In this document: positions 10,211 to 60,619 of the stretch, in pieces
Position numbering within the stretch: position 1 is the stretch's first letter
Layout of the letters: every line of letters begins with the position of its first letter
Source of the DNA: Yuukianura sp. NJ FZ-2021
Lineage: Eukaryota
Direction: 5' to 3'
Length of the DNA stretch: 64,000 bases
NCBI GenBank assembly: GCA_046563655.1
Contig: CM102284.1
Location: 4,526,001-4,590,000, forward strand
Made by a program: the position numbers and the translations under genes
Notes under the pieces: model-generated
Database searches by the model: none
Told to the model about the DNA's origin: nothing
The model's input: only the letters and a program-made list of their open reading frames with translations

Positions 10211-10711
10211 TTTTTTTTTTTTTGATTTCATTTTTTTTTAATTCTTCTTGATTTTTTTTTTTTTTTTTAATTTTAATTATTTAATCTTTTATCAACAACT
10301 ATAATAATGCAGAACTGTATTATAAGTAATAAATTTCATCCAATTCTTTTCCGGGGGTAATAGTTCCGAGAATTGAGGCTGAATTCCCACGTTGGATAGC
10401 TATACTAATTCGTTGTAGAAGGAAGGCGGTTGACTTCGGTTCGCCAGTGTAATCAGTAATACGATGTCCAATGGATTTGATGAGTTTTAAACCTTCGACC
10501 CCGAATACTCCTGATGTTTCCACTGCGATGATGCCCACGATGAATTCATTTTCCAAGTCAGCGTAAAGGTTGTGCTTGTGACCTTCTGCCAGAGAAGCAG
10601 CATGTCCGAAATTCACAGAAGAGGCCTGAAGGTAGGATGAAGCATAGGTATCACGACAGGTGAAATCCCAAGCTAAAGAGCGTCCAGATTTCCAGGGGAT
10701 GAGGGTGACTC
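10211..10711 (-). mobile_element. 5'-truncated non-LTR retrotransposon, CRE-clade-like (C-terminal restriction-like endonuclease region), with poly(A) tail and ~12-bp TSD
   Basis: The minus-strand frame is open 10712-10320: GVTLIPWKSGRSLAWDFTCRDTYA...AAxxAE..K...AVETSGVFG...FLLQRISIAIQRGNSASILGT, the typical CRE-like C-terminus. T-tracts lie at 10209-10223 and 10252-10268. The direct repeat CGCCGTTAGGTT is at 10199-10210 and 10712-10723. Confidence 0.88.
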
Positions 10712-58864: not shown

Positions 58865-58951
58865 ACGAGAAGAAGAAGCCGCACATTAAGAAGCCTCTCA
58901 ATGCTTTTATGTTGTACATGAAGGAGATGCGGGCCAAAGTCGTCGCTGAGT
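58865..58951 (+). CDS. pan: TCF/pan HMG box exon 1: (N)[28 protein letters not shown](C)
   Basis: ttccAG acceptor; canonical TCF HMG helix-1 sequence; donor GTACGA splits the Cys codon (T|GT). Confidence 0.97.
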
Positions 58952-59047
58952 GTACGAATCCTTACTTTACCCTACGGACGTAGCTTCTATTTTTTTCTGG
59001 AAGTAATTGTTTTAGTAGTAATCGTATCCCTTATTTCTATGGTTTAG

Positions 59048-59094
59048 GTACGCTCAAAGAAAGTGCAGCGATCAATCAAATCCTTGGAAGGCGG
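59048..59094 (+). CDS. pan: TCF/pan HMG box exon 2: (C)TLKESAAINQILGRR
   Basis: tttAG acceptor and GTAAGA donor; invariant TCF sequence; ends in phase 0. Confidence 0.97.
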
Positions 59095-59386
59095 GTAAGA
59101 GACTAAAACTGTAATATCCTTCTTCCTTGTCTAAACTCAATTTGAACTCTCGCGGCCACTTTTCGGTCGCTGGTCACTTTTTTTCAAAGAACTTTCTCCT
59201 TGATCTCTCCCTTGCCTCTCTGAAAGCTTCTAAATTCAACATCATTTTGCACCTTTTTTAAAAAAAGTTATCATGAAACCAACCAGTTCAACTGACCTTG
59301 CCTTGTTCATCCCTTGGAGTTGCAGTCTAAAAAGGCGAAACGTTTTAGAACAAGATTTAAACAGTTTTTGACTCGTATATGTTTAG

Positions 59387-59488
59387 TGGCACTCTCTGAG
59401 CCGAGAGGAGCAGGCCAAGTATTACGAAAAGGCGAGGCACGAACGGCAGCTCCATCTCCAATTATATCCGGGTTGGTCAGCTAGGGAT
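59387..59488 (+). CDS. pan: TCF/pan HMG cassette A, part 1: [34 protein letters not shown]
   Basis: tttAG acceptor and GTAAGT donor; 102 nt, phase 0 to 0; canonical C-terminal half of the HMG box. Confidence 0.96.
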
Positions 59489-59575
59489 GTAAGTTTTCGT
59501 TAGACAAAACAGTGGGAGGTCATTCACCTTTGACCTTGACCTTTTGATATTGATGGAGACTATGTTTTGAAACAG

Positions 59576-59633
59576 AACTATGGCTATGGAGCTAAAAAGA
59601 AGAAGAGAAAGAAAGAGAAAACTTCCGATGGAG
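59576..59633 (+). CDS. pan: TCF/pan cassette A, part 2 (basic tail/NLS): NYGYGAKKKKRKKEKTSDG(G)
   Basis: aacAG acceptor and GTATTG donor; phase 0 to 1; completes SARD-NYG and the basic tail. Confidence 0.95.
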
Positions 59634-60194
59634 GTATTGTGCAATTCATGCGATTTTTATAGAATTTCGACAATTTTTATTTGCTGCAAACATAAACTCA
59701 GAATTTGACCAACCCATCGGTAATCTGCTGAATTTAAAAAAAAAACGAAAATCCGTGTTTTAAAATTTAGAAAATCAGGCCCGTAGGCACAAATCCCTTA
59801 TTTCGCTTGTTGTTCCTTCCGAAGTCTTAAAGTTGATTTTGTTGGTGTTTTTTAGTTTTGTTAAATTAACTTTTTGGTTCTCATTTGGAATTTGGAAATT
59901 AGTGCACAAATGCTCCTTCTGCAGTTTTCGTTTTTCAAGGCACTTTTGAATTAAAAAGGCAGTTAAATCGGGAACTTGAGTTGAATTATGTAAGAAGGTG
60001 CAAAGTGTGAGATTTTTTGAAAACGGATTTAAATAATTTGAGAAAAGCAGCTTTTTTTTAGTTTCCTTTTTCCTGTTTTATTTCCAATTCTTGAAAAATT
60101 GAAAATTCTAAATCGAAATAATTTTGAAGAGTTTGAAGAGACAAAAACGAAACTTTTAGTAAAACATGATTTTGATTTTGATTTGGGGCCTCAG

Positions 60195-60351
60195 TGGCAC
60201 GCACTAGGTCGTGAAGAACAAGCGAGATACTACGATTTAGCCCGTAAAGAAAGGCAGCGTCATATGCAGATGTACCCCAACTGGTCATCTGCCCAAACTA
60301 GAACTCACCATGAAAAGAAGCGGAAGAAAAAACAAGAGAAATTTGACGGAG
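60195..60351 (+). CDS. pan: TCF/pan HMG cassette B (duplicated, alternative to A): [52 protein letters not shown](G)
   Basis: ctcAG acceptor and GTATTC donor; 157 nt with the same entry (0) and exit (1) phases as cassette A; clearly paralogous to A and open. Confidence 0.93.
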
Positions 60352-60549
60352 GTATTCAGAACTTTTGATACAAAATTTTGACAAAAGTGAAGTTTTTTGA
60401 CTATAAGAAAAATTCACCTAAAACTGAAATCAAATCAAACTTTTCTCAAAAATAACCGATGGGTTTGTGAATTTTCTGAGTTGATGGATGGATATGGTGG
60501 TGGTGTTGGAAATCAATTTAAGTGTGTAAATTGACTTTCTTTTTCACAG

Positions 60550-60619
60550 GAAATAGCATGAAGAAGTGTCGAGCTAGGTACGGGTTGGACCAACAAGCTC
60601 AGTGGTGCAAACCGTGCAG
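60550..60619 (+). CDS. pan: TCF/pan C-clamp exon: (G)[22 protein letters not shown](R)
   Basis: ttttcacAG acceptor and GTAATA donor; phase 1 to 2; CRARF-like and WCxxC motifs. Confidence 0.97.

Follow-up and report, generated by a model that had tools for sequence, protein, structure and literature searches.

Conserved long-range intronic helices as candidate guides of mutually exclusive HMG-box cassette splicing in a springtail TCF/pangolin gene

The TCF/pangolin gene and its two cassettes

The DNA analysed here is a stretch of 64,000 nucleotides (nt) from the springtail Yuukianura sp. NJ FZ-2021 (contig CM102284.1, positions 4,526,001 to 4,590,000), referred to below as the window. Judged by its coding sequence, the + strand between 58.8 and 60.7 kb is the 3' half of a springtail TCF/pangolin gene, and the introns of this gene hold conserved complementary elements that may guide the choice between two alternative HMG-box cassettes. 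TCF/pangolin is the nuclear effector of Wnt signalling, and the third helix and basic tail of the HMG box contact and bend DNA. All features described below lie on the + strand. Exon E1 (58865..58951) starts the HMG box, and its end at 58951 matches a spliced contig of a close relative, organism C. Exon E2 (59048..59094) continues the box with TLKESAAINQILGRR, and supplies the constitutive 5' splice site on the upstream side. Cassette A follows as exons A1 (59387..59488) and A2 (59576..59633, with NYGYGAKKKKRKKEKTSDGG), which together measure 160 nt (1 mod 3), and cassette B is a single exon of 157 nt (60195..60351, also 1 mod 3). The C-clamp exon (60550..60619) provides the downstream constitutive acceptor. 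All of these exons have AG/GT borders, and their translations give the TCF/LEF order of HMG box, basic tail and C-clamp. The two cassettes are tandem paralogues, each coding for the end of the HMG box and for the basic tail, and their exchange swaps the third helix and the basic tail. Matching proteins carry PF00505 and bear the names dTCF or pangolin, the best at 90% identity; cassette B alone is 90% identical to dTCF of Allacma fusca and 79% to that of Folsomia candida. No protein-level difference was seen between the window gene and the dTCF proteins of Pancrustacea, HMG box, basic tail and C-clamp being common to both.

The cassettes are frame-exclusive: the reading frame keeps open only if exactly one of them is used. 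In translations of test constructs, only E2-A-C-clamp and E2-B-C-clamp gave an open frame, while inclusion of both cassettes led to a stop at residue 103 and skipping of both to a stop at residue 47. The spliced contig of organism C (4251 nt) joins 58951 to 59048, 59094 to exon B and exon B to 60548/60550, and so uses B and skips A. Of the two forms that the frame rule predicts, the B form is the one seen, through the junctions E2-B and B-C-clamp of this one contig.

Conserved intronic islands and the enclosing duplexes

The introns are labelled I1 (after E2), I3 (between the cassettes) and I4 (after B). We compared those of the window with two springtail metagenome contigs, L001 and L002 (cassette B protein identity 88% and 79-85%, respectively), and with one fragment from organism D. 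L001 and L002 have the same exon order as the window and 76-89% exon identity to it. When the window region was searched against the loci by blastn, the exons and splice-site flanks alone were returned, plus one 28-nt match in an intronic element termed Y. With the splice-site flanks excluded, window and L001 share six exact intron matches of at least 10 nt. Five of these are collinear and identify L1 (12 nt, in I1), L2 (13 nt, in I3), X (14 nt), R1 (14 nt, in I3) and R2 (10 nt, in I4), where L1 and R1 are the arms of duplex 1 (D1), L2 and R2 those of duplex 2 (D2), and X is a further intronic element; the sixth, a 10-nt T/G-rich word, is out of order. Shuffled introns gave on average 0.25 (I1), 2.45 (I3) and 0.07 (I4) matches of at least 10 nt. 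In this comparison the four arm cores, X and Y are the only long conserved islands in introns that are otherwise unalignable, and the four arms stand as one element upstream, two between the cassettes and one downstream. The arm cores are also unique, since the only matches with 0-1 mismatch within 64 kb are the arms themselves. None of the 20 listed intron substitutions in a close relative, organism B (~99% alike), falls in the arms, X or Y; ~2 would be expected there, so this carries little information. Pair tables were anchored on the cores, because a MAFFT alignment of the whole region from E2 to the C-clamp exon had misaligned L1 and L2.

A first-pass annotation, made from the sequence alone, had placed both duplexes and had pointed to arm conservation and compensatory change in related introns as the evidence to look for. 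This evidence is now available, with the D1 arms kept in three springtail lineages with compensatory changes and the D2 arms in two.

D1 lies where it had been placed. Its 5' arm L1 (59243..59258, core CATTTTGCAC), the upstream docking element in I1, pairs with R1 (59992..60007), the selector upstream of cassette B in I3, at 16 of 16 positions (14 Watson-Crick and two G-U pairs), and the duplex encloses cassette A. Intron pairs were tested by local alignment of one intron against the reverse of another with base-pair scoring and dinucleotide shuffles, and secondly by windowed duplex energies compared with shuffles. Four control intron pairs scored at chance (27, 111, 108 and 88 of 150 shuffles reaching the observed score). 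D1 is the best I1 x I3 duplex in the window (score 35), and the best I1 x I3 duplexes found independently in L001 (0/40 shuffles) and L002 (1/40) have the same core, CATTTTGCAC/GTGCAAARTG. The predicted energies are -41.3 (window), -55.9 (L001) and -47.5 kcal/mol (L002). L1 is the sole exact I1 match of at least 10 nt between window and L001, at 12 nt against a longest match of 11 in 40 shuffles, and it is also present in L002. R1, whose 14 nt are identical in L001, recurs in L002 with a U.G to U-A and a C-G to A-U change. Ten core pairs are kept in all three sequences: pair k=2 is U.G in the window and L001 and U-A in L002, and pair k=10 is C-G in the window and L001 and A-U in L002. The flanks of the core differ in sequence in each species and are complementary in each. 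The window helix extends inward (CTTTTT/AAGAAG), and outward extensions add six pairs in L001 and nine in L002, with double changes between these two such as U-A versus C-G at k=-5 and A-U versus U-A at k=-6. In organism D (<90% alike), the first 119 letters of the intron after E2 cannot be aligned to the window; alignment resumes at 59234-59305, the L1 region, before the contig ends, and all 11 gap letters are at or beyond 59261.

Two shorter helices nested within D1, which the first-pass annotation had added as its extension, fared differently. Their left arms (59285..59304) are complementary to 59956-59987 as claimed, with nine of nine pairs in D1b (59285-59293/59979-59987, one G-U) and six of six in D1c (TGCCTT/AAGGCA, 59299-59304/59956-59961). 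Their pair probabilities are 0.03 and 0.01 in a fold that gives the D1 core 0.93, neither has a counterpart in L001 or L002, and deletions in organism D at 59284 and 59289 lie at and inside the left arm of D1b. We therefore reject D1b and D1c as functional helices. Separately, the C-clamp exon contains at 60604-60611 (codons W-C-K) the word GGTGCAAA, a direct repeat of the R1 core. Over 8 nt it is hence complementary to L1 as well, which may reflect an additional pairing partner or just a coincidental match in coding sequence.

D2 also stands as first described. L2 (59695..59721), ~60 nt past the A2 donor, comprises the left strand of an accessory helix D2b (59695-59703) and the core (59711-59721); R2 (60455..60482), the downstream docking element in I4, comprises the core (60455-60465) and the right strand of D2b (60474-60482). 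The strands are complementary at all 11 core positions and all nine D2b positions, and together they enclose cassette B. D2 with D2b is the best I3 x I4 duplex in the window, with a score of 56 that none of 150 shuffles reached, and the windowed energy of -39.3 kcal/mol, against -23.4 +/- 2.1 for shuffles, was reached by none of 40. The D2 energy is -37.8 kcal/mol in the window and -36.2 in L001. The best I3 x I4 duplex of L001 contains CAACCCATCGGTA/TGCCGATGGGTTGA (2/40 shuffles reach it). Window and L001 each retain all eleven core pairs, pair k=-2 being C-G in the former and U-A in the latter, and k=10 U-A and U.G, respectively; the helix is extended outward in both, with differing sequences.

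A trace of R2 was noticed in the gene call P0051, on a contig of 4785 nt, which reads from an exon B 89% alike into the next intron and contains the residues KPMGWIWW. These residues are the predicted translation of the R2 core followed by GGATATGGTGG of the window (60455-60503), and by this reading a further lineage may keep R2.

Among neighbouring sequences, the A-rich segment 59731-59768, between the arms, behaves as a dispersed repeat, to which unrelated contigs of organisms B and E map with loose ends. Pieces of organism E at 59731-59772 and 60015-60128 were set aside as uninformative, being repeats (18-42-nt matches from many contigs).

Inner helices, crossing order and folding

Two further conserved helices, which the first-pass annotation did not contain, lie inside the duplexes. 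X (59799..59815) is complementary to the 5' part of exon B (60213-60229), with duplex energies of -26.6 (window), -23.6 (L001) and -29.6 kcal/mol (L002). Pair k=5 of this helix is C-G in the window and L001 and G-C in L002, where X carries a C-to-G change that compensates for a synonymous G-to-C change in the exon. Y (59902..59935) is complementary to the 5' splice site region of cassette A, its partner being the 3' end of A2 together with its 5' splice site (59610..59644). In the window and L001 alike, Y pairs with this site better than with any other part of the pre-mRNA, the energies being -28.1 (window), -25.9 (L001) and -37.2 kcal/mol (L002); against I3, no shuffle in 25 reached the window value. 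The conserved island within Y (59908-59929) spans 22 nt, 20 of them identical in L001, and both differences (59912 and 59922) fall at unpaired positions of the duplex. The first ten intron positions at the A donor (+1 to +10), seven of which pair with Y, show no change in L001, in contrast to the flank of the B donor, where no conservation was seen.

Two observations concern these helices. A direct repeat of the nuclear-receptor-like half-site TGACCT lies in the A1/A2 intron of the window (59531-59548, TGACCTTGACCT); the similar TTTGACCTTTGACC stands directly past the cassette-A donor of L002 (1783-1798), within the Y-5' splice site duplex there, and the related TGACCTTGCCTTG at window 59293-59305. 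In exon B, codon 60225-60227 is Arg (AGA) in the window and Lys in L001 (AAA), L002 (AAG) and other TCFs. This codon lies inside the X-exon B helix, with a U.G pair in the window and U-A in L001 and L002, a pattern that would be expected of a hard-wired adenosine-to-inosine (A-to-I) site.

Along the window, L1 is followed by cassette A and its donor, then by L2, X, Y and R1, and lastly by exon B and R2. The arm order L1<L2<R1<R2 is thus crossing, as the first-pass annotation had it, and each duplex encloses one real cassette. D1 encloses the helix of Y with the 5' splice site, D2 that of X with exon B, and in the window and L001 both helices of either state cross both helices of the other, so that the states could coexist only as a pseudoknot. 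Partition-function folds of transcripts ending just past R1 gave D1 a probability of 0.93 (window), 0.96 (L001) and 0.97 (L002), and in nascent transcripts of the window and L001 the Y-5' splice site helix reached 0.69-0.97, with 0.82-0.97 for element Y of the window. In the full window transcript D2 stood at 0.95-0.98, D1 at 0.00 and the X-exon B helix at 0.009.

Taken together, these sequences suggest that conserved long-range intronic helices guide mutually exclusive splicing of the TCF HMG-box cassettes, in the manner described for Drosophila srp, a reading to which we give a probability of roughly two in three. D1, joining L1 to R1 ~190 nt upstream of B, would loop out cassette A and bring the E2 donor near the B acceptor, favouring B; Y, nested in D1, would hide the 5' splice site of A2 by pairing with it and with the end of the exon. 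D2, joining L2 to R2 ~70 nt before the C-clamp exon, would loop out B and favour A, and X, nested in D2, would pair with the first part of exon B. The B-favouring state is predicted to form first on nascent RNA, and the A-favouring state to be preferred in the window after I4 is made. Given this predicted folding order, the kinetics of transcription and splicing could set the A:B ratio. The first-pass annotation had proposed an RNA switch between crossing duplexes that picks the DNA-binding half-domain. Arm conservation, frame exclusivity and the B-only transcript of a relative support such a switch, the crossing duplexes being retained and D1b and D1c dropped; its effect on the A:B ratio we infer, along with helix formation in vivo, the direction of the effects and the kinetic order. 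A stronger form, that the six elements make up a two-state, four-helix co-transcriptional switch conserved since the deep springtail split, perhaps with analogous helices in other hexapods, in which the B-favouring fold forms first and the A-favouring fold overtakes it only before splicing is committed, is tentative and we hold it to be doubtful.

Several results weigh against the guidance of splicing by these helices. The comparison set of three full sequences and one fragment is a small sample. Shuffled introns, the control suggested in the first-pass annotation, set D2 apart as given above and do not set D1 apart: 39 of 150 shuffles reached its score, and the windowed I1 x I3 energy of -25.9 kcal/mol, against -25.2 +/- 2.8 for shuffles, was reached by eight of 25. 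By strength, then, D1 is not exceptional in the window, and on the sequences compared it is conservation in other springtails that validates it. The D2 sequence was not found in L002, whose I3 lacks CCCATCG. A different, purine-rich/pyrimidine-rich (GA/CT) I3 x I4 duplex occupies equivalent positions there (1807-1859 with 2470-2523), which is a hint only, since low-complexity sequence can yield such a duplex. Single-sequence tests of the X-exon B helix were weak (2, 2 and 3 of 25 shuffles reaching it in the window, L001 and L002, respectively), and the test of the A 5' splice site against I3 was clear in the window alone (2/25 in L001, 3/25 in L002). In L002, moreover, Y lies upstream of X, so that the X and Y helices do not cross. 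The arms of D1 and D2 have no common sequence and do not compete directly, and any exclusivity between them would be topological (a pseudoknot) or kinetic, as is discussed for srp (PMC4691838), rather than a competition for shared sequence. Full-length folds gave the X-exon B helix 0.94, D1 0.02 and D2 0.001 in L001, and D1 0.00 in L002; as modelled, the full-length equilibrium folds differ between species and are not robust. With helices forced, the B-favouring state is ~17-21 kcal/mol worse than the A-favouring state in the window, and the two differ by 3.6 kcal/mol in L001.

Alternative explanations, known systems and significance

The alternative that survives best, though we consider it unlikely, is that genuine, conserved helices act in the fidelity or efficiency of splicing, either by reducing the effective intron length or by blocking double inclusion of A and B, or that the X-exon B helix is an ADAR editing duplex, while protein factors set the A:B ratio. 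The frame rule and nonsense-mediated decay already enforce exclusivity, D1 and D2 do not compete for sequence, and the Arg codon at 60225-60227, where L001 and L002 have Lys, has the A-to-I-like pattern within the X helix. The passages of PMC4691838 on srp can be quoted on both sides, since disruption of both pairings raised aberrant splicing there, while pairing strength correlated with exon choice. The arrangement in the window speaks for isoform selection rather than fidelity, as each helix encloses exactly one cassette and the inner helices mask the splice site or the exon of that same cassette, as selection predicts.

Somewhat less probable again is the explanation that the islands are binding sites of splicing regulators or DNA-level elements (e.g. 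intronic enhancer motifs in opposite orientation) whose complementarity is incidental. Like protein-binding sites, the cores are invariant and short, at 10-14 nt; the pyrimidine tract of Y, with CAG or TAG behind it, might act as a PTB-type site or a decoy 3' splice site; and D1 is thermodynamically unexceptional in the window. Incidental complementarity sits poorly with the flanks of the D1 core, which differ in all three species and yet are complementary, several pairs having changed on both sides, and with the two differences in Y, both at unpaired positions; by a rough estimate, accidental complementarity of four separate island pairs is very unlikely. That the matches are chance or functionless inverted-repeat or transposon remnants is very improbable: AT-rich introns do give 44 pairs of 14-17-nt imperfect inverted repeats in 2.1 kb, the D1 score is within reach of shuffles and a dispersed repeat lies between the arms, but the arms are conserved across springtail contigs with otherwise unalignable introns, are unique within 64 kb and include a D2 that no shuffle reached, the 76-89% exon identity argues against L001 and L002 being contaminants or recent transfers, and a remnant is largely refuted by independent recovery, conserved islands and covariation.

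Guidance by conserved long-range helices has a close precedent. Exons 4.1 and 4.2 of Drosophila srp are controlled by bidirectional RNA pairing (Yue et al. 2016, RNA 22:96, PMC4691838). According to the parts of that paper drawn on here, the introns contain four conserved elements, of which the first follows exon 3, the middle two lie between 4.1 and 4.2 and the last precedes exon 5; they form an upstream stem that leads to exon 4.2 and a downstream stem that leads to exon 4.1; the stems were tested by mutation, and the authors considered that both might form a long-range pseudoknot. Ivanov and Pervouchine (PMC6071210), in the sections concerned, describe a pseudoknot as impeding simultaneous formation and name RIC-3, MRP1 and Dscam clusters as other examples. 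The springtail locus resembles srp in its two alternative exons, here predicted by the frame rule to be mutually exclusive, its four elements, their crossing order and the enclosure of one exon by each pair (PMC4691838, same parts). Upstream-to-middle and middle-to-downstream pairings, crossing and each enclosing one exon, are both found, and pairing is maintained with compensatory changes in three of three sequences for D1 and two of three for D2, in this small sample. The differences are that srp is a GATA factor in Drosophila and the present gene TCF/pangolin in Collembola; that cassette A of the window is itself split by an intron; that two extra conserved helices here cover the 5' splice site of A and a portion of exon B, whereas the srp account, as far as the cited parts of PMC4691838 go, has no inner helices; and that the srp stems are mutation-tested, whereas the springtail helices are known from sequence comparison and folding.

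Docking site-selector systems (Dscam1 exon 6, 14-3-3xi and the Dscam exon 4 and 9 clusters, as outlined in parts of PMC4691838 and PMC6071210) likewise use conserved long-range intron pairing by tandem homologous arthropod exons, and there too pairing brings splice sites together and loops out unused exons. In those outlines one docking site is common to all selectors, whereas L1/R1 and L2/R2 have no common sequence. Competition of that kind was rejected for the window, as L1 pairs with R1 alone, L2 with R2 alone, and the best I1 x I4 duplex is at chance (27/150). Human ATE1 exons 7a/7b, as presented in the relevant part of PMC7797038, are also a two-exon exclusive pair with several conserved intronic elements (R1-R5) and alternative structures, but in a vertebrate gene with an ultra-long-range helix and with elements named R1 and R4 that compete for R3.

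The first-pass annotation knew of no description of the arrangement for TCF/pangolin, and we likewise found no report of such pairing for pangolin/TCF in the literature, supplements, the Kassiopeia database and Hatje & Kollmar 2013 lying outside this coverage. The main texts of PMC4691838, PMC6071210, PMC3303723, PMC3228551, PMC2724269 and PMC3923563 contain no mention of pangolin, pan or TCF. This is thus a known kind of splicing control that apparently has not yet been reported for TCF/pangolin.

The cassette pair itself reaches beyond springtails. A scan of metagenome contigs with the cassette B alignment gave 43 loci, at 15 of which A is followed by B, and both cassette types stand in tandem in public gene models of Allacma, Folsomia, the mayfly Cloeon and the crab Petrolisthes. 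With springtails, mayfly, crab, termite-associated contigs and Lepidoptera-like sequences all showing the pair, these 15 loci and the tandem gene models indicate, from sequence, that it is old within Pancrustacea. Proteins P0001, P0002, P0019 and P0026 (the Allacma, Folsomia, Cloeon and Petrolisthes models) contain A and B together; since the frame rule excludes both in one mRNA, these models are probably annotation errors. P0007, a metatranscriptome protein from an insect-like source, shows two junctions, A-C-clamp first and E2-B-C-clamp later on, and is probably a chimeric assembly of both isoforms. If so, both isoforms are expressed in that insect-like organism.

For generality outside springtails, five of 13 loci with both cassettes were examined (L004, L005, L014, L015 and L017). 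The A 5' splice site paired significantly with I3 in L017 (0/25 shuffles) and not in the other four; the test of exon B against I3 was significant in none of the five. Six near-identical termite-associated contigs (L005, L006, L008, L009, L012 and L013) have one common I3 x I4 duplex, reached by 0-4 of 40 shuffles. This duplex lies around cassette B (e.g. L005 9718-9777 with 10449-10502), includes a perfect 12-bp helix, GCAGAATAGGTT/AACCTATTCTGC, and is unrelated in sequence to the springtail D2. Duplex scores in L015 and L018 arise from microsatellites.

Other features of the locus stand apart from the helices. The E1/E2 intron (58952-59047) and the A1/A2 intron (59489-59575) of the window are missing in L001 and L002, and the contig of organism D also lacks the former; by this comparison they represent intron gain or loss among springtails. 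Positions 1-52000 of the window have a strong positive GC skew on the + strand (0.14-0.30), which drops to ~0 past 56 kb. Between 58500 and 61000 there was no Rfam match with E up to 1, and no relevant tandem repeats were found in the region.

In springtails, then, the ancient A/B pair is accompanied by a compact set of conserved RNA helices. If these helices guide splicing, TCF/pangolin would join srp as the second transcription-factor gene with bidirectional pairing of this type, here in a basal hexapod, and the springtail system would enlarge that architecture by additional helices, one masking a splice site and another an exon. An arm mutation with its compensating change would offer a way to force either TCF isoform in vivo, and would let the function of the two DNA-binding variants be asked, on which little seems to have been written. 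If the two-state switch is true, the choice of DNA-binding half-domain in the Wnt effector TCF would be set by how fast RNA polymerase moves or by the kinetics of splicing.

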